The notes under the pieces were generated by a model. It was not told the origin of the DNA. It saw only the letters and a program-made list of their open reading frames with translations, and searched no databases. Made by a program: the position numbers and the translations under genes. From Escherichia phage EP75, in the sequence record MG748547: a stretch of 64,000 nucleotides of DNA; one strand, written 5' to 3'. Within the stretch, counting starts at the first letter, position 1. Each line of letters opens with the position of its first letter. Shown here in pieces: positions 647 to 55,923 of this stretch.

Positions 647-654
647 TATAAATA
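647..654 (+). promoter_or_regulatory. T4-type late promoter box TATAAATA
   Basis: Exact TATAAATA 22 nt upstream of ATG at 676, followed directly by hairpin ACCCCCAAAATTGGGGGT whose 3' arm carries the GGGGG Shine-Dalgarno. Confidence 0.5.
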
Positions 655-9626: not shown

Positions 9627-9652
9627 CAGAGGCTATAATGGCCTCTGTTTTT
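9627..9652 (+). terminator. intrinsic terminator
   Basis: CAGAGGC-TATAATG-GCCTCTG hairpin followed by TTTTT. Confidence 0.6.
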
Positions 9653-9671
9653 GTATTCTAGAGAGGATACC

Positions 9672-10898
9672 ATGAAAGATAAACCGTGTGACATTCCTTA
9701 TTGCGGTGTTCGAGAAGCCAAAATTAAATCTGCACATCCCATGTTAAGTCCATTTCATAAACAACTCGCATACGAATGGATGAGTGAGCGCTATAAGATC
9801 CACGTGAGAAAGGACGTACAGCGTCTTCCTGCTCCTTGGACGGATAATCCCATACTACGGCAGGTCAAGTTCTGCAACGTCCGGAGAGAGCACGACAGGC
9901 AGTCTCTTAACCTGATCAACAATATCGTCAAGAACGACGCTCTGAGCATGGCTGACAAGATGTTCAATTGTGTTCTGTTTCGCATGTTCAATCTCTGGGA
10001 CCCGATCAAGGTGGCGCTCGAGGGTGCTATGACGATTTCAGACTTCGCTAAAATCAACCTCGACGAGACCCGCGCCCGTCTTCAGAAGTTTGAATCAGAA
10101 GGTGGTAAGATATTCACCAATGCATTCAACACAGGTGGTCTAAAACAATGCCTGGCGTTCCCTGAACTTGTTGTCAACCACAAGGAGCAGCGCTTTGGTG
10201 GTATGATGGTTAAGGTACACCGTGTTGGTCAGGGTATCGTTGATGAATTGGATTACAAGGTCGCCAAGAAGCTGGTTGAAGAGAATCCTGGGGAGTACAC
10301 GATCGAGGGCTGGGAGCCGTACATGCCGATGCGTGTTATCCGTTCCCTGAAGGCATTTGTCAACAAGTATCCTGATTACTTCAATGATCTTTTACGTCTT
10401 GACTCTCCGATGAAAGTCTACCAGCGCATGTATGAAGACATTGAAGGGCTTGGACCATTCCTGGCTTATCAGATCTGGGTAGACTTCACGTACATCCCTG
10501 AATATCCATTCAGCGAGAACCATTTCACTATCGCTGGCCCAGGTTGTCGCGCGGGTATTGACCTGATGTTCCTGGATAAGGACGGCATGACTCATGAAGA
10601 ATGCATCTTCTGGGTTCGAGATCACCAGTATCAATTGTTTGCCCAGTATGGTTATGTCCAAGAGCAGTTCTGGTCAGCCGAAGCACCGGAAGATCAGTGC
10701 ATGAATGTCATGCAGCTGGAGAATATGTTCTGTGAATTGAGCAAGTACACCCGCTGTGTGCAGGCTGTTGAGAGAGGGGAAAAGCCCCGTGGCAAGGTCG
10801 GTTACGATGGAGGCGGGGAATACAAAAAGCGGTGCGATGAAGTTGTCCTCAATCGCGGATCGGTCAATTTGTTAGATCGTTTGAAGAAACCTGAATAA
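9672..10898 (+). CDS. hypothetical protein (408 aa), no family recognised
   Basis: ATG at 9672 with GAGAGGA SD; conserved-looking stretches FCNVRREHDRQS and GPGCRAGID; C-terminal Cys cluster. Confidence 0.5.
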   Translation: MKDKPCDIPYCGVREAKIKSAHPMLSPFHKQLAYEWMSERYKIHVRKDVQRLPAPWTDNPILRQVKFCNVRREHDRQSLNLINNIVKNDALSMADKMFNCVLFRMFNLWDPIKVALEGAMTISDFAKINLDETRARLQKFESEGGKIFTNAFNTGGLKQCLAFPELVVNHKEQRFGGMMVKVHRVGQGIVDELDYKVAKKLVEENPGEYTIEGWEPYMPMRVIRSLKAFVNKYPDYFNDLLRLDSPMKVYQRMYEDIEGLGPFLAYQIWVDFTYIPEYPFSENHFTIAGPGCRAGIDLMFLDKDGMTHEECIFWVRDHQYQLFAQYGYVQEQFWSAEAPEDQCMNVMQLENMFCELSKYTRCVQAVERGEKPRGKVGYDGGGEYKKRCDEVVLNRGSVNLLDRLKKPE

Positions 10899-11010: not shown

Positions 11011-13032
11011 ATGGCAGAATTTAAACCTTTCGCAACGGCTGTTAATGATAACGTGCTGGCGATGTCCGCAACTGGTCTGTTCATGACCAACGTTGATAAA
11101 GATGCTCTGTGGGATTTGTATTTGGCATCCTTCCCAGCTGGTACCAACCCGATGTACCGCGAACGCACTGAACACGACTGCACCTGCTGTAAACAATTCA
11201 TCCGTAATATCGGCGGCGTTGTGACTATCGATGCTGACCTGAACGTTATCTCGATTTGGGACAACATTGAGTTGGGTAACGAATACGACGTGGTCGCTGC
11301 GGCGCTGTCGACCTTCGTTAAACAACACGCAATCGTCGACGTGTATTTTAACGATTCTGCTAAAGTCGGCCTGTCTCATAACCACGAATCTGGTGTAGAC
11401 GGTAAAATCCGCACGTATAACCATTTCCATACCGAACTGCTCGGCAGCTATGTCCTGCGTTCTGATGCTATCGCATCTAAAAAAGGTGAAATCCGTCAGG
11501 CTATCGAATTATTTGAACGCGGTCTGCGTGAAATTACTCTGGAATCAGCAGAAATCGTTCTGGAATTGATTGATCAGAATTCTTTGTATCGCGGTGCTGA
11601 ACATAAAGCTGCGGTGATGGGCTTCGTAGTAGCCAAGACGGCATATGAAGAAATCCCAGAATCTAACCGTTCTCTGTGGGCATGGCGCACTGGTTATCGT
11701 TCAAACAATCATGTTCCACATGGCATTCGCAACACCGTTATCGGTACTCTGTTGACTGATATCAGTGAAGGCGTGGAACTGGAAAAGGCCGTTAAGTCGT
11801 TTGAAACCAAAGTTGCCCCAGCGAACTACAAACGCCCGACGGCTCTGGTCTCCAAGTCCATGATCGAAAACGCTCAGAAAGAAGTGATTGCTCTCGGTCT
11901 GGAAGATTCGCTGGCGCGTCGTTATGCAGTTTATGACGACCTGACGATCAATAACGTTCTGTTTGCAGACCTGGCTGCTCAAAAAGCGATGGATCCATTC
12001 GCTCAACTGGCCGCCGAAGTGAAAACGCCGACCAAGTCGCTGGATAAAGTTGAAGAGATCGGCATTGACGACTTCCTGAGCAATATCCTGCCGAAAGCGC
12101 ATTCAATGGAAGTGCTGGTTGAAAACTCGCATACAGGAAACCTGATGTCTCTGGTCGCTCCGGCTATCGCAGGTGCTCCTAACCTTTTCAAATGGGGCAA
12201 CGGTTTCTCATGGTCATACAACGGCGAAGTGACCGACTCCATCAAAGAGCGTGTGAAAGCGGCTGGTGGTAAAGTCGACGGGTTCCTCCGTGTGTCTTTG
12301 GCTTGGCACAACAACGATGACCTCGACCTGCATATGTTCTTTAACAATATGGAACATGTGTACTTCCGCGATCGTCGTTCAATGACTGGTGCTCATCTCG
12401 ATATCGACATGAACGGTATGGACGGCATCGACCCGAACCGCTCTCCGGTAGAAAACATCATCTTCACTGATGAAAGAAAGTTGCGTGACGGTGAATATCG
12501 TTTTGAGATTCACAACTACAACCAACGTGAAAAGATCGACGAAGGGTTTGAAATTGAAGTTGAATACAAAGGCACTACGCAACGTTTCAGCCACAATGGG
12601 TTAAAAGACCAGGGGCGCATCACTGCCGTCGTTCTGACTGTTAAAGACAAACAAGTCGTTAGCATCAAGTCCGAGCTGGCGAATGTTGATAAATCCAAAG
12701 AAATTTGGGGCATTAAGACAGCGACCTTCCAGAAGGTACAACTGGTCCTGAACTCACCGAACCATTGGGATGGTGAACAAACTGGCAACAAGCACGTCTT
12801 CTTCATCCTGGAAGGTTGTGCAAATCCTGAAGGTACTCGTGGTTTCTACAACGAATATCTGAAGCCGGAACTGGATAAACATCGTAAGGTTTTTGAAATG
12901 CTGGGTAGTAAAATGAAAGTACAGCCCAACGAAAACCAACTGTCTGGTCTGGGGTTCTCAACGACGCAACGCAATCATGTGTTCATCAAAGTGTCCGGTG
13001 CGTTTAACCGTACTGTAAAAGTCATTTTCTAA
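11011..13032 (+). CDS. large hypothetical protein (673 aa)
   Basis: AGGAAG SD; no Walker A and no polymerase motifs; AAGGKVDGF...NDDLDLH stretch loosely resembles G[GS]...DxD nucleotidyltransferase or KxDG ligase motifs. Confidence 0.55.
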   Translation: MAEFKPFATAVNDNVLAMSATGLFMTNVDKDALWDLYLASFPAGTNPMYRERTEHDCTCCKQFIRNIGGVVTIDADLNVISIWDNIELGNEYDVVAAALSTFVKQHAIVDVYFNDSAKVGLSHNHESGVDGKIRTYNHFHTELLGSYVLRSDAIASKKGEIRQAIELFERGLREITLESAEIVLELIDQNSLYRGAEHKAAVMGFVVAKTAYEEIPESNRSLWAWRTGYRSNNHVPHGIRNTVIGTLLTDISEGVELEKAVKSFETKVAPANYKRPTALVSKSMIENAQKEVIALGLEDSLARRYAVYDDLTINNVLFADLAAQKAMDPFAQLAAEVKTPTKSLDKVEEIGIDDFLSNILPKAHSMEVLVENSHTGNLMSLVAPAIAGAPNLFKWGNGFSWSYNGEVTDSIKERVKAAGGKVDGFLRVSLAWHNNDDLDLHMFFNNMEHVYFRDRRSMTGAHLDIDMNGMDGIDPNRSPVENIIFTDERKLRDGEYRFEIHNYNQREKIDEGFEIEVEYKGTTQRFSHNGLKDQGRITAVVLTVKDKQVVSIKSELANVDKSKEIWGIKTATFQKVQLVLNSPNHWDGEQTGNKHVFFILEGCANPEGTRGFYNEYLKPELDKHRKVFEMLGSKMKVQPNENQLSGLGFSTTQRNHVFIKVSGAFNRTVKVIF

Positions 13033-13883: not shown

Positions 13884-14756
13884 ATGACAACTCGTACTGG
13901 CATCAAACTCACTCCTGAAGTCCTGAAGTCACATATCGCTGAGGTGATTTACGAAGACCGCGAAGTCGGCGGTCACCGGGCTATCACTTGTCATTTCAAG
14001 ATGGATAACGGCTTCGTCGTTCACGGCACCAAGCCCAGCACATCCATAGACCCGGCCAACTTCGATGAAGCCCTGGGCAAAGAGATTTCCTACAATAACA
14101 CCTTCGACCAGCTGTGGCAGCTGGAGGCGTACCGGGCGCTTGTTGAACAAGATCTGTTGGCCAAAGCCACGGAAACGGCAGAGATCCGGATCGATCAATA
14201 CGCTGTTGAACGTAGCGCCCTCTGTCCGGCCTATCACCTCGGCTTCAATGTGATGATTCAGGACGTGATGTTCAGAGCGGAAAATGGCGAGCGCTTCTTG
14301 GCGTCTTTCGTTTGTGGGCCGGATGACATGGAACTTGTTGTTGACTCTCACAACGCCAAATCTCGTAAGGCTGTTAGTGATTTCCTGTGCGCCAACTCCA
14401 AACTCGATCTCACTTATTCGCCATTGGTTCTGCGCATCGCCAAGATTTGTCATGAAGCCAACCGCGCATACTGCAAGTCTGTTGGTGACGACTCTCAACT
14501 GCCTTGGGAACAATCTCCGGCCTGGCAGCGTGAGAGCGCTTGCAAAGGTGTTATCTTCCATCTCACTGGTGATCGTAAGCCCAGCGAATCGCATGAGAGC
14601 TGGATGGCGGAGAAGGAGGCTGAGGGATGGGTGTATGGCCCAGTCAAAGACCCTCAGACCAAGCAACACCCTTGCATGGTTCCGTATGGAGAACTCCCGG
14701 TACAACAACGCTCCAAAGATTATATTTTCAAATCCATTGTAGACTCCTTTAAATAA
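13884..14756 (+). CDS. Gp49-like N-terminal domain fused to RyR domain protein
   Basis: N-terminus ITCHFKMDNGFVVHG...NFDEALGKEI...WQLEAY matches phage Gp49/Sf6 gene-66 family pattern; C-terminus WMAEKEAEGWVYGPVKDPQTKQHPCMVPYGELP matches RyR domain signature. Confidence 0.55.
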   Translation: MTTRTGIKLTPEVLKSHIAEVIYEDREVGGHRAITCHFKMDNGFVVHGTKPSTSIDPANFDEALGKEISYNNTFDQLWQLEAYRALVEQDLLAKATETAEIRIDQYAVERSALCPAYHLGFNVMIQDVMFRAENGERFLASFVCGPDDMELVVDSHNAKSRKAVSDFLCANSKLDLTYSPLVLRIAKICHEANRAYCKSVGDDSQLPWEQSPAWQRESACKGVIFHLTGDRKPSESHESWMAEKEAEGWVYGPVKDPQTKQHPCMVPYGELPVQQRSKDYIFKSIVDSFK

Positions 14757-14789
14757 GCTCTGAATAATATTTCAACCTGTCAATAATAT

Positions 14790-14826
14790 AATGCCCGGTT
14801 ATATTCAATCGGGCATTTTATTATAT
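14790..14826 (+). terminator. intrinsic terminator
   Basis: AATGCCCG...CGGGCATT hairpin followed by TTTATTATATT. Confidence 0.5.
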
Positions 14827-14905
14827 TAATTGGCATCAATACCGCCTGTCGTAATATAATAGTCCCATGTTGAAATAGTTGGGAAATATAACTCACGAGA
14901 GCCTG

Positions 14906-15082
14906 ATGACCGACAACAAATTAAAACGCGCCGGACTTGATTGTCTTGACAATTCATTCCGTCCCAGTGATGTTCTGGTCGCCCAAATGGAAAACAACCG
15001 GGATTTCATTGAAACTATGCTGGAGAACGCCGACGCGAACTCCAAACACTCCAAAGCCCAAAAAGGTCAAAACGATGATTGA
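14906..15082 (+). CDS. small hypothetical protein (58 aa)
   Basis: ATG at 14906; stop overlaps the vWA gene start (ATGATTGA), suggesting translational coupling. Confidence 0.3.
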   Translation: MTDNKLKRAGLDCLDNSFRPSDVLVAQMENNRDFIETMLENADANSKHSKAQKGQNDD

Positions 15083-17291
15083 ATCATTAACATTTAAGAA
15101 TGCGGTTGCGACTGTCGCGCCGTCTAACCATGTAATCGTTGTGGATATCTCCGGTTCCATGTATCGTTCACTTCCAGAAGTTCGTAAGCATCTGAAGGAG
15201 AACCTGCCTTCCCTGGTGAAACCGGAAGATACTGTGAGCATCCTTTACTTTTCATCTCGCGGTGATTTCGGAACGGTATTTGCCGGACGTCAGATTAACA
15301 GTGCAACTGATCTCACTGAGATCAATAATCTAATTGACCGCTTCCTGCAACCGTCGGGATGTACGGGATTTGTAGAACCTCTGAAATTGGCTGCTGAAAC
15401 CGCGTTGAGTCTGAACAAACCTGGTTATGTCAATAACCTGGCGTTCATGACCGACGGTTATGACAACTGCTGGCGCTCTAATGAAATTCTGGCAGCAGCT
15501 GAAGTACTGCCCAAAGCGTTTGATAACATTACCTTCATCGAATACGGTTGGTATTGTAATCGCGAACTGCTGGCTCTGATGTCCGAGCGTTCTGGCGCGA
15601 CCCACGTGTTTGCCGAAGGTCAGACTGAATATCAGACCGAACTGGAAAACGTACTGAAATCATCTACGCCGAAAGTGGTTGTTGATGTTCCCCTGGTTTA
15701 CACTCATGCCATCTACGTTGAAAACGGCGTGGCAACTGTGCTAGCCATACAGCCAGATGAAGAACACCCGATTGGCCACGTGAGCATTCCTGAAAGCGTT
15801 TCTCAGCTGTGGGTTGTAAACCCCAACATGATCGACCAGCTGGACAATCTGGCCGACATCCAGGCGGCATACGTGCTGGCATTTTATGGCGTGTATACCA
15901 TGGATGCCGATCTGGTTTGGGCTGCGCTGAAGAAGACAGGCGACGTCCGCTTCATCAAACAATACAGCAACTGTTTCACCAAGCAGGACTATTCCAACAT
16001 CAAAGTCGACCTGACCCAGGCTATCGTGGATGAAACTCTGCGCGGCGTAGATGGTATCGATTACAACATGGTTCCAGCTGAAGATGCGACGACCATTGTT
16101 GATGTCTTGACCTATCTGGCCGAAGCCGACGTCTCTGTTGTCACTAAGCATCCGTTGTTCTCTTACAACAGCATCGGTCGCGGAACTGTGCAGAAAGTTG
16201 ATGACACAGAAGACAAGCTGGCTGAACAAATCGCCGAAGCCAAAACCAAAGCAGAGCGTAAAGCGCTGGCTCTTAAACTGGCCGAGCACGAAGATTGGAC
16301 GCCGGAATTTACTCCGGTTGACGACAAAGGGATTGTCCCAATTAGCAATCTGGTCTACAATTCAGAGCGCCCTAACATCAGCATTCAGACCGTTCAGCAC
16401 GGGACGGTTGTTGTGCCGGAGTTCGTACAGAAGAAATATGAACTTCCTGAAGAACTGGGAACCTGGCGTTATCGTAATTACACCATCGTCAAAGATGGCA
16501 TCATCAACCTGAAGACGATGCCGATTACTGCTGAATCTCCGATTGTCCGAGCTAAGGTTGTCCAAGATTTGACCGCCATGGGCGTTAATGTGTTTGGTGG
16601 TCCGGAAATCTTTATCGTTAATTTAGAAAGCGTTCCAATGGTCAACCGCGCCATGACCAAGAATATCAGTGCTGCCGAATTCTTCGCCGACAACGTTCGT
16701 CGCGAAGCGCTGAAGGCAAAACAGAAAGTTCTGAAATTCTATCGTGATGAACTGGTTGGCAAAGGTAATGCAACAGGCCTGGCGTCTAAATATGGTAAAG
16801 AAGCCGCCGATTTCTTGTCAGCAAATGGCATTCGTGACTACGGGTTCTCACCGAAAACTACTTCTGTGGAATCAACCGACGTCTACATGAGTCGTGAACT
16901 GAACGTGAAAATCAAAGGTGCTTCGTCGCTGCCGAGTATTGCGTCTGTTGTTAAAAAGCAAGCAGACGGTAAAAAACTGAATGTCGCTGATCAGTTGATT
17001 GCTAATGCTCTGGCCGAATACAACGCTTTTGTTAAATCTCCAATGATCACCAGCGTACCTGAAGAGACTCAGAAAAAGCTGATTGAAAGTTGGATTGGCG
17101 ACGCAGCAAAAGCAGCCATCAACGAAGTCCGCGCCCTGAACAAAACGCTGTCTAAAGTAGTTTACGGCATCGTCGCTGGTCATGGTTGGTTCACTGATTT
17201 GGATCTGGAAGAGTCTACGATGGATGTAGAAGTTGATGGGGTGAAATACACCGTCACTGCCGAACTGGCCGAAAAAGAAATCAAGATCTAA
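15075..17291 (+). CDS. von Willebrand factor type A (vWA) domain protein, 739 aa
   Basis: ATG at 15075 (MIESLTF); complete MIDAS motif VVDISGSM plus downstream MTDGYDN; long C-terminal region of unknown function. Confidence 0.7.
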   Translation: MIESLTFKNAVATVAPSNHVIVVDISGSMYRSLPEVRKHLKENLPSLVKPEDTVSILYFSSRGDFGTVFAGRQINSATDLTEINNLIDRFLQPSGCTGFVEPLKLAAETALSLNKPGYVNNLAFMTDGYDNCWRSNEILAAAEVLPKAFDNITFIEYGWYCNRELLALMSERSGATHVFAEGQTEYQTELENVLKSSTPKVVVDVPLVYTHAIYVENGVATVLAIQPDEEHPIGHVSIPESVSQLWVVNPNMIDQLDNLADIQAAYVLAFYGVYTMDADLVWAALKKTGDVRFIKQYSNCFTKQDYSNIKVDLTQAIVDETLRGVDGIDYNMVPAEDATTIVDVLTYLAEADVSVVTKHPLFSYNSIGRGTVQKVDDTEDKLAEQIAEAKTKAERKALALKLAEHEDWTPEFTPVDDKGIVPISNLVYNSERPNISIQTVQHGTVVVPEFVQKKYELPEELGTWRYRNYTIVKDGIINLKTMPITAESPIVRAKVVQDLTAMGVNVFGGPEIFIVNLESVPMVNRAMTKNISAAEFFADNVRREALKAKQKVLKFYRDELVGKGNATGLASKYGKEAADFLSANGIRDYGFSPKTTSVESTDVYMSRELNVKIKGASSLPSIASVVKKQADGKKLNVADQLIANALAEYNAFVKSPMITSVPEETQKKLIESWIGDAAKAAINEVRALNKTLSKVVYGIVAGHGWFTDLDLEESTMDVEVDGVKYTVTAELAEKEIKI

Positions 17292-17299
17292 ATCTAATT

Positions 17300-17323
17300 G
17301 GCGGGGCCAACCCGCCTTACTTT
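17300..17323 (+). terminator. intrinsic terminator
   Basis: GGCGGG-GCCAA-CCCGCC hairpin followed by TTACTTT. Confidence 0.5.
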
Positions 17324-17329
17324 CAGGAA

Positions 17330-17647
17330 ATGAATATGAGCAACAAACCGACTTATGTTGATGTAATGCGCGTTTTGGCCCAATACGCGTGTGACAATCT
17401 AAACATGGAAACTTGGCGCGACGGCGACCATAAAGAAAAGTTCGATAATATCGACGACAACATTGATGCGTTGGCTCCTCTTCGGGCCAAGAGCGATCTC
17501 GGTGGTGATGATCTTGACATGATTGAACTCATCATGGAAGTTGAAGAACAATATGATGTTGAAATCAGCGATGAATGGGTAGGCAAACATGGTGATGACC
17601 CCACGCTCGGCGCATTGGCTGAATTGGTAGTTGCCCTCAGCAAGTAA
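17330..17647 (+). CDS. acyl-carrier-protein-like protein with Asp in place of the phosphopantetheine serine
   Basis: DLGGDDLDMIELIMEVEEQYDVEISDE aligns with ACP core [27 protein letters not shown] but has DDL where ACP has DSL; alternative ATG at 17336. Confidence 0.55.
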   Translation: MNMSNKPTYVDVMRVLAQYACDNLNMETWRDGDHKEKFDNIDDNIDALAPLRAKSDLGGDDLDMIELIMEVEEQYDVEISDEWVGKHGDDPTLGALAELVVALSK

Positions 17648-22341: not shown

Positions 22342-22646
22342 TTTCAAAATATATTGTAAAGCCTGGGGATACTCTGTCCAGCATCGCTCTAAAATTATAT
22401 GGTGATGCCCAACAGTATATCAAATTAGCCAGATTCAACAATATCCAAAACCCAGGCCATATCGCGGTTGGTCAGGTTATTTGTTTACCCACACCTGTCG
22501 AAGACAAAGAACACATTATGATTCCGGTTCAACCGACTCAGAAGTGTTTGGATGCGATAGCTGGTTTATTTCGGCCAGGTTTTTGTGATGGAACTATTGA
22601 ACGTCACATTTATCAAGCAATTGTGGAAAACGCAGGTGTAAAATGA
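22338..22646 (+). CDS. LysM domain protein
   Basis: YIVKPGDTLSSIALKLYGDAQQYIKLARFNNI matches LysM peptidoglycan-binding motif; ATGA overlap upstream. Confidence 0.55.
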   Translation: MISKYIVKPGDTLSSIALKLYGDAQQYIKLARFNNIQNPGHIAVGQVICLPTPVEDKEHIMIPVQPTQKCLDAIAGLFRPGFCDGTIERHIYQAIVENAGVK

Positions 22647-22852
22647 TCGGATTAATTCGTTACCTGTTCATATTCGTAATTTCAACATTCATTTTATTTT
22701 TCTTTTTCAAATACTTGAAAGAGACTAAAATCTACCGAAGTAAACGTTGGCGCAAACGGGTGAGGGCAACTTTCCTGCTGCTGATTTCTTCGGTTACAAT
22801 AACCGCACTCACATTGGGTGCTTATATCTACATTTTTGAAGGGGTACATTGA
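22643..22852 (+). CDS. small integral membrane protein (two predicted TM helices)
   Basis: 69 aa with two hydrophobic segments separated by a basic loop; ATGA overlaps on both sides. Confidence 0.45.
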   Translation: MIGLIRYLFIFVISTFILFFFFKYLKETKIYRSKRWRKRVRATFLLLISSVTITALTLGAYIYIFEGVH

Positions 22853-23643
22853 TGTTCAAGAAACTGGTGTTCGGTGCAATTATGGTTCTGGCTGCAAGTC
22901 TACTTTCTGGTTGTGGTGGCGTTATCGATGAAGGTAACGTCGGCGTTCGTACCCAATGGGGTGAAGTAGACATGAACCCTGTAACGGCGGGGATCTACAC
23001 CAGCTTTGTTTCAAGCGTGGATGTTTACACGACCAAAGAAGCCGTTGTGAGTCTTACTAAAATGACTCCAAAGGCGAAAGACAACCTGACTCTGGAAGAC
23101 TTGGATGTAGATGTTTATTACACACCCAACGTCGCAAAGGTTCCGTGGTTCCATACCAAATTTGCTGGCCAGAGCGCTGAACTCGATGATGGCACGATAG
23201 CGGTGGGTTTCAATCTGGTTAAAACTGCTGCATCATCTTCTTCAATGGACGCCGTTTCTTCTCTTGATTCTATGACAATTCACACCCAACGTGCTGAATT
23301 GGAGAAGATGATTAAAGATCGCACTCAGCAACAATTAGAAACTGCTGCGCCTGGTATGTTCACAATTACACGCGTGTTAGTGAAAAAGGCGCTGACAGAT
23401 CCTTCTATTGAGCAGTCTATCCGTGATAATGTTATGGCGGACAAACGATTGGATACGGCAAGAAAGAACGTTGAAATTCGCGAGCAAGAAGCCCAAGCGA
23501 ACCAAAAACTGACCACCTCGCTGACGCCTGAATATCTACAACATGAATATAACATGGTGTTACAATCATGCGCCAACAGTGGAAAATGTACTCTGATCGT
23601 TGACGGATCCGGCTCAGGTAAAATGCTGAACGTCGGCAAATAA
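22852..23643 (+). CDS. lipoprotein with SPFH (band-7/HflC-like) domain
   Basis: Signal peptide plus lipobox LLSGC; EGNVGVRTQWGEV resembles the SPFH N-terminal motif of HflK/C; coiled-coil C-terminus. Confidence 0.5.
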   Translation: MFKKLVFGAIMVLAASLLSGCGGVIDEGNVGVRTQWGEVDMNPVTAGIYTSFVSSVDVYTTKEAVVSLTKMTPKAKDNLTLEDLDVDVYYTPNVAKVPWFHTKFAGQSAELDDGTIAVGFNLVKTAASSSSMDAVSSLDSMTIHTQRAELEKMIKDRTQQQLETAAPGMFTITRVLVKKALTDPSIEQSIRDNVMADKRLDTARKNVEIREQEAQANQKLTTSLTPEYLQHEYNMVLQSCANSGKCTLIVDGSGSGKMLNVGK

Positions 23644-23726
23644 ACGCTTTATTCAATAATATTTGTTAGGTAAGCTGTAGTCCTCTTGTAGTGAAACATT
23701 GTAAACAACTAACTGGAGTAATCCGA

Positions 23727-24130: not shown

Positions 24131-25852
24131 GTGACAGCATTTAATCAATACCGAAAGGCGATTGACGCCATAGGCCGTAAGGTTCCTATAGAAGAAATAG
24201 AAAGCCTTGCCAAAAACGAATTTCCATATGACAAGGCGAACCCAGGCCAGATGGAATGTATCGTTGAAGCTGTTGATGCACTGGTCAACAAAAAGGTCAA
24301 ACATGTGATCATCGAAGCCCCAACTGGCGTGGGGAAATCTTTGATCGGAACAACGATTCATAAAGTTATTCGCCATTTGGTTTTACATGCCGATCCTTAT
24401 GGGCAATTCCGCACGTCTATCAGTACACCCACCAAAGGTCTACAAGACCAATATGCTGCTGAAAAGGCGGTGGCGATAGACATCCTGAAAGGCAAGAAGA
24501 ACTATCGTTGCCACGTACACCCAGATGTGTATTATAACGCTGTGCAATGCCGTATAGCATGCCGAGACGGGCATTGTAGTAAACGCCGTTGTCCATATGT
24601 ACAAGCACGTAATTTGTGGACGGACATTTCATCATTGCGTTGCACTAATGCAGCTATGATGATTGAGATGTGCACCACCATATGTATGAAGCCTGAAAAC
24701 CGCTCCGACATGCTGATCTTAGACGAGTGCCATAAGATGCCCTCCACGCTCCTAGAGCACACGATAATGGAATACAATACAAAGGCTGTGGATGGGCTGC
24801 GAACTATCCCCGAAGGGAAGGAGATAGTCTCCATCATTGCCGATATTGTAGACCGCACTAAAGACTATGTCTTGGGCAAATTGTATTCTTTGTCTGGTGA
24901 AATGCATTCGATGTTCGAAGACCTCCATCTTAAAGTGGAGTCTTTGTTGGAAGTTCTTGAAGAATTGGTTGAAGATGACCGCCTGAGTGAAAGCCAGGTG
25001 ATGAAACTCGCTGACATTATAGATGTGCTACACAATCTGAGTGATTATTGTGGTATTATGTCTCAGACAAAGGCCAGCACCTTTATCGTACAGGAAAAGG
25101 GAGATGACTTTATCCGGTTCAAACCCGTCATGCCTTCTGATGTAAGTGAATTTGGTTTGTTCAGGAAAGCCGATTACCATGTTCATATGTCGGCAACAAT
25201 CTGTGGGATCGATTCATATGCCCGTTCCTTGGGTATCCGCCAGGGGGATTATCATTCAATACAGATTGGAAATCCAATCCCAATTGAAAATCGTAAAGTC
25301 AACTATATGCCCATTGTTAAGATGACCAACAACATGGGCGATTATGAAATGAAAAGGCTGACGGAATACATCGATGAAATAATCGCGTTTCATCCAGGGC
25401 AATCTGGTATTATACACACGGTGAGTTATGATCGTGCATTGGCGATACAAAAATTCAGCAAATACCAGAATTTTATCCATGTGCCCCGCACTCGAAAGGC
25501 GTTGATGGATATTATGGAAAATGCATTCAGGACAAAGACGCCTTGTGTCATTGCCAGTCCGGCTATGGAAGAAGGATATGACTTCAAAGGTGATTACAGC
25601 CGATTCCAGATACTGATCAAAGTTCCTTACGATTATCTGGGTGATCCTCTAATTGCACATATCAACTCAGTAGATCCGTCAGCGTACTTCCGCAATGCGG
25701 TACTGAGGATTGTACAAATGTGCGGACGCTCGGTCAGGGGTGTCGATGACTGGGCTGCAACATACATAATTGATTCTTCCTTTGAATCTCTTATGATGCG
25801 CAACCCAGAGTTCTTCCCAACCTGGTTCACCGATGCAGTATTTGAAGTTTAA
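24131..25852 (+). CDS. DinG/XPD-like Fe-S helicase
   Basis: GTG start with AGGAGG SD; Walker A APTGVGKS, DECH box, four-Cys cluster CRIACRDGHCSKRRCPYV typical of an Fe-S domain. Confidence 0.65.
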   Translation: MTAFNQYRKAIDAIGRKVPIEEIESLAKNEFPYDKANPGQMECIVEAVDALVNKKVKHVIIEAPTGVGKSLIGTTIHKVIRHLVLHADPYGQFRTSISTPTKGLQDQYAAEKAVAIDILKGKKNYRCHVHPDVYYNAVQCRIACRDGHCSKRRCPYVQARNLWTDISSLRCTNAAMMIEMCTTICMKPENRSDMLILDECHKMPSTLLEHTIMEYNTKAVDGLRTIPEGKEIVSIIADIVDRTKDYVLGKLYSLSGEMHSMFEDLHLKVESLLEVLEELVEDDRLSESQVMKLADIIDVLHNLSDYCGIMSQTKASTFIVQEKGDDFIRFKPVMPSDVSEFGLFRKADYHVHMSATICGIDSYARSLGIRQGDYHSIQIGNPIPIENRKVNYMPIVKMTNNMGDYEMKRLTEYIDEIIAFHPGQSGIIHTVSYDRALAIQKFSKYQNFIHVPRTRKALMDIMENAFRTKTPCVIASPAMEEGYDFKGDYSRFQILIKVPYDYLGDPLIAHINSVDPSAYFRNAVLRIVQMCGRSVRGVDDWAATYIIDSSFESLMMRNPEFFPTWFTDAVFEV

Positions 25853-51106: not shown

Positions 51107-51114
51107 TATTTATA
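51107..51114 (-). promoter_or_regulatory. T4-type late promoter box TATAAATA (- strand)
   Basis: Plus-strand TATTTATA; 29 nt upstream of the start of gene 50275..51078 on the - strand; divergent from + gene starting at 51128. Confidence 0.5.
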
Positions 51115-55901: not shown

Positions 55902-55923
55902 GATATTTATAAGGAGTTGACAA

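Follow-up and report, generated by a model that had tools for sequence, protein, structure and literature searches.

A phage-restricted vWA protein family with a conserved MIDAS and a C-terminal module of its own, described from Escherichia phage EP75

Escherichia phage EP75 (sequence record MG748547) encodes, at positions 14,906–17,291 of the 64,000-nt stretch analysed here (hereafter, the window), a 738-residue vWA protein and, overlapping its start, a 58-residue open reading frame (ORF). The vWA protein combines an intact MIDAS (metal-ion-dependent adhesion site) with a predicted platform of the ArnB/Sec23-24 type and a large C-terminal module, and it belongs to a family found almost entirely in phages. 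We put the probability at about 0.5 that it is a soluble, non-virion, probably early or middle protein that acts alone as a protein-binding adaptor, dependent on the MIDAS metal and independent of AAA+ ATPases. The gene is already annotated as encoding a vWA protein in public records, and a vWA domain is ordinary in itself. New are a structural assignment for residues 196–320 and the finding that the roughly 420 residues after them have no known relative. The analysis further shows how large and uniform the family is and that it is essentially exclusive to phages, that its MIDAS is strictly conserved, and that the outcome was negative for each of the proposed neighbour partners; it also describes a putative coupling to a small ORF that is specific to Ackermannviridae.

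Domain architecture of the vWA protein

The gene and its parts are as follows.
15075–17291 (+): vWA-family protein, 738 aa, 81.5 kDa, pI 5.0, without transmembrane segment
15123–15659 (+): vWA (Rossmann-like) domain, residues 17–195, containing the MIDAS residues
15660–16034 (+): predicted beta-sandwich (residues ~196–250, plus N-terminal strand 3–6) and helical bundle (residues ~251–320)
16035–17288 (+): family-specific C-terminal module, residues ~321–738, predicted as mixed alpha/beta with a long helical hairpin

The reading frame runs from the ATG at 15075 to the stop codon at 17289–17291, which gives 738 aa. A first-pass annotation of this DNA had reported a vWA protein with an intact MIDAS and an overlapping 58-residue ORF, both of which we recovered from the sequence; its length of 739 aa is corrected by one residue. 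An upstream in-frame TTG at 14937 yields a 784-aa version that is a mechanical ORF call only, and all homologues begin M-I-E at the ATG corresponding to 15075.

The Pfam VWA profile (PF00092) matches residues 20–183 (E = 7e-7; 30.0 bits vs a gathering cut-off of 23.8), and the modelled domain has an alpha/beta Rossmann-like fold with a central beta-sheet and flanking helices. The MIDAS is complete, comprising D24-x-S26-x-S28 (nt 15144–15158), T97 (nt 15363–15365), and D127 (nt 15453–15455); the motif DISGSM occupies residues 24–29 (nt 15144–15161) and TDG residues 126–128. These five residues are invariant in 41/41 homologues of an alignment reaching down to 34% identity and in all six very distant members. 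The proteins of Rhizobium phage RHph_TM30, at 22% identity, and Bacillus phage PBS1 (gp259), at 26%, are among the distant members with an intact MIDAS. The residues are likewise invariant in the single representatives of all 31 clusters into which the homologues of 89 loci fall at ≤60% identity. The proposal that DISGSM and the downstream TDG form a complete MIDAS in a genuine vWA domain is therefore upheld by PF00092 and the invariant residues, and the loss of MIDAS residues that would have spoken against it was seen in none of the 31 clusters, even at 22–26% identity. This pattern points to strict selection on the MIDAS, which would bind a protein through a divalent metal and a carboxylate of the ligand.

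AlphaFold2, given the 41-sequence alignment, predicted the 738-aa protein with a mean predicted local distance difference test score (pLDDT) of 87.7 and without a disordered segment; residues 251–738 modelled separately reached 88.9. The elements of the model are a strand at 3–6, the vWA domain at 17–195, strands at 200–248, and helices at 252–318. As in a core of the ArnB/Sec23-24 type, the beta-sandwich strands flank the vWA domain and the helical bundle directly follows the sandwich. In a structure search, 264–300 residues align to ArnB, 4fx5, and Sec24, more than the ~180 that a vWA domain alone comprises. The first ~320 residues are predicted on this model to be a vWA, beta-sandwich, and helical-bundle platform of the ArnB/4fx5/Sec23-24 type. 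In proteins of the ArnB class, the vWA domain is an insertion in a beta-sandwich, after which comes a helical bundle, and the same core occurs in 4fx5, E. coli YfbK, and Sec23/24; the listed examples are archaeal, bacterial, and eukaryotic, and none is viral (PMC12852372).

The likeness to these proteins is one of core architecture. ArnB/ArnE of Sulfolobus and 4fx5 of Catenulispora share the core with the phage protein at a sequence identity of only 13–16%, and ArnB stops after the helical bundle (~380 aa), whereas the phage protein adds a module of ~420 residues that has no counterpart there. ArnB works with the FHA/Zn-finger protein ArnA, kinases, and phosphatases, whereas the phage gene is linked to neither an FHA protein nor a conserved kinase. 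Because we found no FHA protein, and the DUF3268 Zn-finger gene nearby differs from the vWA gene in its phage distribution, the Zn-finger/FHA partnership and phospho-regulation of ArnB (ArnA, ArnC, PP2A) have no counterpart here, and the phage protein is an architectural relative and not an ArnB orthologue. Sec23/24 have a similar trunk and beta-barrel core, in contrast to the C-terminal region, where no Zn-finger or gelsolin domain was detected in the phage module and Sec23/24 were absent among the best 60 structural matches of the C-terminal model. Sec23/24 are also not known to have a functional MIDAS, unlike the phage family with its strictly kept one, and they form the COPII coat, whereas the phage vWA protein is not a coat protein. 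Two further assignments were considered and rejected: Sec23/24 helical and gelsolin domains in the C-terminal part, which were not found among the matches listed, and a Ro60/TROVE-type protein, for which the domain order is wrong and no match was obtained. Inter-alpha-trypsin inhibitor heavy chains (ITIH), calcium-channel alpha2-delta subunits, and marine sortase-target proteins are either secreted or anchored in the membrane, with VIT or Cache domains. The phage protein has neither a transmembrane segment nor a VIT domain, and a signal peptide was not noted (its N-terminal 19-residue windows lie below the protein's hydropathy maximum of 1.29; a signal-peptide predictor was not used). A cytoplasmic location is putative.

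Residues ~321–738 gave no Pfam, PDB, or viral-structure match outside their own family. Queried with the model of residues 251–738, a viral structure library returned only same-family members; Pfam found nothing in the C-terminal part of any of 24 members, and Pfam, NCBIfam, and PADLOC applied to this part and to the neighbours added nothing beyond the vWA domain. The domain search of the C-terminal part suggested with the first-pass annotation thus yields no known relative for ~420 aa. Some 500 aa had been described there as unassigned; the unassigned part is real and shrinks to ~420 aa because residues 196–320 now have a structural assignment to the beta-sandwich and helical bundle. Within the module, the polar residues N434, S436, R467, D474, R525, K551, D602, and S617 are invariant or near-invariant, as is W705. 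Because so many polar residues are invariant or near-invariant, the module could be a binding surface or an unrecognised enzyme. No strongly positive region that would hint at nucleic-acid binding is present in the vWA protein (pI 5.0).

Distribution of the family and the overlapping 58-residue ORF

The window belongs to a Kuttervirus (Ackermannviridae) phage, and its region 14906–17291 is 96% identical at the DNA level to Salmonella phage bering of the same genus, where GenBank labels the two products 'hypothetical protein' (the 58-aa ORF) and 'putative vWa containing protein' (bering_58); the vWA gene itself shares 96% nucleotide identity with bering_58. Megablast of the region returned 218 phage records, mostly Salmonella, Escherichia, Dickeya, and Klebsiella phages of ~157 kb. 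At the protein level, phrog_2426 matches along the full length (1256 bits; residues 1–738 vs profile positions 2–736 of 736), and PHROG 2426/pVOG VOG3102, which includes Dickeya phage LIMEstone1, is the same family as the window protein, with no function assigned in PHROGs. An annotation table labels phrog_2426 'magnesium chelatase' (PMC9409062), which would make the protein a metal chelatase subunit like BchD or CobT. We regard this as the least credible of the alternatives considered: the phage protein resembles such subunits only in the generic vWA fold, scores higher against dozens of other vWA structures, and does not have the N-terminal AAA-like domain and the acidic linker that BchD has; in the bering genome, annotation and Pfam showed neither a BchI/CobS AAA+ protein nor a BchH/CobN subunit.

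A word-indexed protein search found 245 full-length vWA homologues. A profile of the C-terminal module, compared with 1.84 billion representative proteins, matched 1370 at E ≤1e-3 and 879 at E ≤1e-30 (the 1370 being representatives at 50% identity). Among the best 150 of the 1370 matches, most are 700–820 aa long with the module starting at residue 250–300, and about fifteen are shorter (375–611 aa), probably as fragments; the family appears to keep one fixed architecture.

The family occurs in 502/50,697 phage records (organism counts, with a spread sample of records examined), whereas only 5 loci were found among 185,579 bacterial and archaeal genomes (one per species). Carriers are all Ackermannviridae genera sampled, Slopekvirus and Pseudotevenvirus of the Straboviridae, Rhizobium Kleczkowskaviridae, and Bacillus phage PBS1; loci from IMG/VR include contigs of 300–512 kb, which indicates jumbo phages. 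The neighbouring genes of three of the five species-genome loci match loci from viral contigs or the metagenome search, and the other two, both in ruminal metagenome-assembled genomes, show no match beyond the vWA gene. On these counts the family appears to be essentially restricted to phage-derived sequence, with hosts that span enterobacteria, Aeromonas, Shewanella, Rhizobium, Bacillus, and many uncultured bacteria. A 178-kb contig in the Flagellimonas marina assembly (NZ_JBHSCL010000010.1, locus L097) is a Pseudotevenvirus/Slopekvirus-like enterobacterial phage and looks like a case of mislabelling or contamination.

The small ORF has the following coordinates.
14906–15082 (+): 58-aa acidic ORF, pI 4.9, ATG at 14906 and stop codon at 15080–15082, phrog_11447 match
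15075–15082 (+): 8-nt overlap ATGATTGA, in which the vWA start codon falls within the final codons and stop codon of the 58-aa ORF

The ORF is a real gene, because phrog_11447 matches it end to end (residues 1–58/58 aligned, E = 4e-45) and a motif (RAG-D-LD--F-P-DVL--Q-E-NR-FIE-ML) that is conserved in Kuttervirus is also present in Limestonevirus and Taipeivirus. At 42–56% identity, its product resembles a Taipeivirus protein of 47 aa and the C-terminal part of a Limestonevirus protein of 180 aa. The domain is free-standing here, and in Limestonevirus it is fused to an N-terminal domain of ~120 aa that recurs alone in Erwinia phage Bue1. A ribosome-binding-like element (GAAGG/AAAGG) lies directly 5' of the vWA start. 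All 19 distinct Ackermannviridae sequences from this upstream region contain an invariant ATGATTGAA, and in 19/23 loci of the Ackermannviridae cluster it forms the end of the preceding ORF, which gives the 8-nt overlap. From this conserved overlap, translational coupling of the two genes is a reasonable, putative inference. The conserved Asp-Asp at the C-terminus of the 58-aa peptide is not interpretable on its own because the M-I-E start of the vWA gene dictates its codons. When a profile of the 58-aa protein was compared with the sequences upstream of the vWA gene, none of the 30 remaining clusters gave a significant match (two wrong-frame sequences had slightly contaminated the profile, causing trivial self-hits in the Ackermannviridae cluster only). 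The ORF is thus the one gene linked to the vWA gene, within Ackermannviridae only, and any role of its product is putative.

Transcription signals, virion status and neighbouring genes

Three putative signals bracket the two ORFs.
14790–14817 (+): terminator-like hairpin from a consensus scan, 11-bp stem followed by a T-run, closing the Gp49/RyR gene
14830–14857 (+): sigma-70-type promoter-like site (TTGGCA, 16 nt, TAATAT), a consensus match only, 5' of the 58-aa ORF
17300–17316 (+): GC-rich hairpin (GGCGGG-GCCAA-CCCGCC) just past the vWA stop, a possible terminator with a weak T-tract

The hairpin at 14790–14817 is identical in the closest Kuttervirus relatives, and the three sites would fit a transcription unit of two genes. 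The window contains only four exact copies of the T4-type late promoter TATAAATA, at 436–443 and 647–654 (+) and at 51107–51114 and 55904–55911 (-), a count not above chance (20/100 shuffles give at least 4). The two minus-strand copies are immediately 5' of baseplate genes, and none of the four lies near the vWA gene. In bering, the vWA gene and the 58-aa ORF are surrounded by replication genes and early-middle genes (clamp loader, RegA-like repressor, nucleoside triphosphate pyrophosphohydrolase, helicase, RNase H, and late sigma factor). We found no Ackermannviridae phage transcriptome in the literature on expression timing.

These signals bear on whether the protein could serve the virion, either as an assembly chaperone or as a low-copy component, comparable to the MoxR-vWA tail system of Acidianus two-tailed virus or to vWA adhesins of pili and tails. 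Detection as a virion protein had been named with the first-pass annotation as grounds for abandoning its interpretation, and no such detection emerged, the protein being absent from the table of CsCl-purified Sajous1 virion proteins (PMC10892097). In an annotation derived from the LIMEstone1 proteome, several neighbours are marked 'unknown structural protein' and the vWA protein is not so marked. Structural proteomes of Limestonevirus-group Dickeya and Pectobacterium phages do not mention it in their text, which carries little weight because these studies name proteins in a figure. Some automated annotations do label homologues 'minor tail protein' (H63 and H73 in our set), jumbo phages have been proposed to use vWA chaperone systems in assembling their virions (PMC7824862), and an assembly chaperone would be invisible in virion proteomes. 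Even so, a virion role is improbable: the gene has no late promoter and stands with early/middle replication genes on the plus strand, it lies among small early genes outside the structural modules in other phages, and the protein has no MoxR partner, no noted signal peptide, and no fibre-type repeats or beta-helix.

Conserved neighbours were sought by all-against-all clustering of 2085 ORFs encoded within 8 kb of the vWA gene at about 90 loci (89 loci, 31 clusters). No conserved neighbour was found within this distance, each neighbour family being present in at most 4/31 clusters; the families of the 673-aa protein, the Gp49/RyR protein, and the acyl carrier protein (ACP)-like protein each lie near the vWA gene in 3/31. 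A tblastn search with the 673-aa, 123-aa, DUF3268, Gp49/RyR, 58-aa, and ACP-like neighbours found none of them at the distant vWA loci. The families also have distributions of their own. That of the 673-aa protein includes N4-like podoviruses, phiCbK-like Caulobacter phages, and the Bacillus phages TsarBomba and SP-15, none of which turned up in the vWA search (organism counts and a spread sample of records), and its homologues are absent from the Slopekvirus and Pseudotevenvirus vWA loci and from the vicinity of the vWA gene in PBS1 and the Rhizobium phages. The Gp49/RyR family is found in small actinophages, Pseudomonas phages, and others, the DUF3268 (Zn-finger) family in Pseudomonas, Vibrio, and Enterococcus phages without being a conserved vWA neighbour, and the ACP-like gene is confined to enterobacterial Ackermannviridae.

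A co-occurrence analysis of vWA homologues across phage genomes had been suggested with the first-pass annotation, and this comparison, in identifying no conserved partner, runs against the idea put forward there that the 673-aa or the Gp49/RyR protein is the dedicated partner. In Kuttervirus, both genes do lie on the same strand at most 4 kb upstream. However, the 673-aa and vWA families differ in their phage distributions, each candidate is near the vWA gene in only 3/31 clusters, terminator-like and promoter-like sites separate both from the vWA unit, and in many Kuttervirus genomes the Gp49/RyR protein is swapped for a 40–45% identical variant, with a vWA protein that remains 95–99% identical. 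The co-occurrence data largely refute a neighbour partner of this kind, which we now hold to be very improbable. A host factor, also named there as a candidate, may instead be the partner.

Several observations concern the neighbours themselves. The 673-aa protein (11011–13032, +) has no Pfam, NCBIfam, or PADLOC match; it belongs to a family conserved over its full length in 556 phage records, including Ackermannviridae and a Microcystis phage, and is thus a widespread unknown. The region upstream of the vWA unit (13884–14756, +, and 14757–14905) is mosaic within Kuttervirus: the Gp49/RyR protein is 99–100% identical in ~50 records and 40–45% identical in others where the vWA protein is still 95–99% identical. 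The ACP-like gene directly 3' of the vWA gene (17330–17647, +) matches PP-binding (E = 1e-6), with neither an acyl-ACP synthase nor a phosphopantetheinyl transferase noticed in the vicinity. The record OR844942.1 ('Enterococcus phage Efm 3-10') contains the Kuttervirus ACP-like gene at 99% identity and looks mislabelled or contaminated. In a distant soil metagenome phage (L002; 12713–14372 and 15989–18009), the vWA gene stands beside queuosine-salvage (PF10343), DUF3841, HD-domain, and CCA-adding/polyA-polymerase-like genes, and the HD-domain gene is found next to the vWA gene again in contigs of Novimethylophilus and Achromobacter (L098 and L101). A 5-hydroxymethyldeoxyuridine (5-hmdU) DNA kinase (PF18723, E = 2e-83) is encoded at 9651–10898 (+), 4 kb upstream of the vWA gene, and bering (L096) encodes an amino acid:DNA transferase (PF18724) at 22476–23714 (-) and a 5-hmdU DNA kinase 2 (PF18747) at 24474–25376 (-). 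The 5-hmdU DNA kinases and amino acid:DNA transferase belong to the thymidine hypermodification pathway of ViI-like phages. A link between the vWA gene and this pathway was considered and rejected, a 5-hmdU kinase lying beside the vWA gene in only 3/31 clusters.

The search for an AAA+ partner was equally negative. None of the 89 loci encodes an AAA+ protein of the MoxR, BchI, or CobS type in the 8 kb around the vWA gene, and none is annotated in the whole bering genome, where the clamp loader is the only AAA+ protein; Pfam likewise found no MoxR- or chelatase-type AAA+ among bering's large hypothetical proteins. The earlier remark that no AAA+ partner is adjacent is correct and extends to the bering genome, as far as annotation and Pfam analysis of the large hypothetical proteins reach. 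Since neither a conserved neighbour nor an AAA+ partner was found, we regard the protein as an orphan vWA protein. That vWA proteins normally work with a partner such as an AAA+ ATPase, as had also been stated, is too strong, because the closest structural relatives (ArnB, Sec23/24, ITIH, TFIIH p44, and Rpn10) work without a dedicated MoxR (PMC12852372). The vWA proteins that are associated with MoxR (ViaA, NorD, CbbO, BchD/CobT) differ from the phage protein in their non-vWA domains, and it has neither their AAA+ partner nor a match to their sequence families.

A host ATPase could in principle take the place of a phage-encoded one. The vWA protein would then be an adaptor or substrate recruiter of a host MoxR-family AAA+ protein such as RavA, replacing or competing with ViaA, and would redirect or block a host chaperone or remodelling machine. 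The failure to find such an ATPase in the phage (bering annotation and Pfam) agrees with this, and MoxR ATPases are widespread in bacteria, which fits the broad host range of the family. We nevertheless consider it rather unlikely, given that the best structural matches belong to the ArnB/4fx5/ITIH/Sec23-24 class and not to the NorD, BchD, and ViaA class, that Pfam and NCBIfam report no similarity to the ViaA, CbbO, NorD, and CoxE families, and that an experimental link is lacking.

Proposed mode of action and significance

Under the reading that we favour, an AAA+-independent MIDAS adaptor, the first ~320 residues would form an interaction platform of the ArnB/Sec23-24 type, with a perfect MIDAS unlike that of several intracellular vWA proteins. 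Mg2+ or a similar ion would be held by D24, S26, S28, T97, and D127, and its coordination would be completed by an Asp or Glu carboxylate of the target. The C-terminal module of 420 residues, always present and confined to the family, may supply an effector, scaffolding, or oligomerisation activity, and no phage-encoded AAA+ ATPase would take part in the mechanism. In Ackermannviridae, the 58-aa acidic protein would be made from the same short transcript through the 8-nt overlap and is probably a lineage-specific accessory or regulatory subunit.

Six points weigh against this reading. The binding of a metal and of a ligand, as well as the time of expression, are inferences; promoter and terminators were called from consensus matches, in a region with only ~1.6x the number expected by chance; and absence from virion proteomes is negative evidence from few studies. 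A partner encoded far away would be invisible to the 8-kb neighbourhood analysis, a phage without an AAA+ partner of its own may use that of the host, and the conserved polar residues of the C-terminal module could mean enzymatic activity, which goes beyond an adaptor.

The conservation of the family also bears on what it may bind. With more than 1000 diverged members, a perfect MIDAS, and invariant residues in the module, the family would be expected to have an important and probably common target. Because the invariant residues are kept across phages of very different hosts, the target is likely a universally conserved bacterial protein or a T4-like core protein, in preference to a variable immune system. 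The latter would be involved if the protein were a counter-defence or host-takeover factor whose MIDAS sequesters an immune or stress protein, possibly mimicking components of vWA-MoxR-VMAP or Ter systems. Such a factor would be in keeping with a phage-exclusive family that is widespread in large lytic phages, with the position of the gene among early, non-structural accessory genes in every context examined, and with the known presence of vWA domains in bacterial conflict systems (PMC7824862). No PADLOC model matches the vWA protein, however, and its 700–800 aa, constant architecture, and invariant motifs across phages of distant Gram-negative and Gram-positive hosts suggest a conserved housekeeping target and not a variable immune system. 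Anti-defence genes are usually small, fast-evolving, and patchy in distribution. We judge a counter-defence role to be about as doubtful as recruitment of a host MoxR ATPase.

The adaptor reading can be carried further, as a speculation that we hold only tentatively and somewhat above these two alternatives: the family could be a class of MIDAS 'clamps', exclusive to phages and independent of AAA+ ATPases, in which the platform and a new fold of ~420 residues seize a universal bacterial or T4-core protein early in infection, with the 58-aa peptide, in Ackermannviridae, as a regulator or as a pseudo-ligand of the MIDAS. If so, more than 1000 lineages of large and jumbo phages would share the protein as a host-takeover or replication-accessory factor. 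The predicted platform would extend the ArnB/Sec23-24 core architecture to viruses. Knowing the target would account for a 'dark matter' gene that is widespread in therapeutic phages (Kuttervirus, Slopekvirus, and Limestonevirus) and could show that vWA domains work in a new way, independently of AAA+ ATPases.

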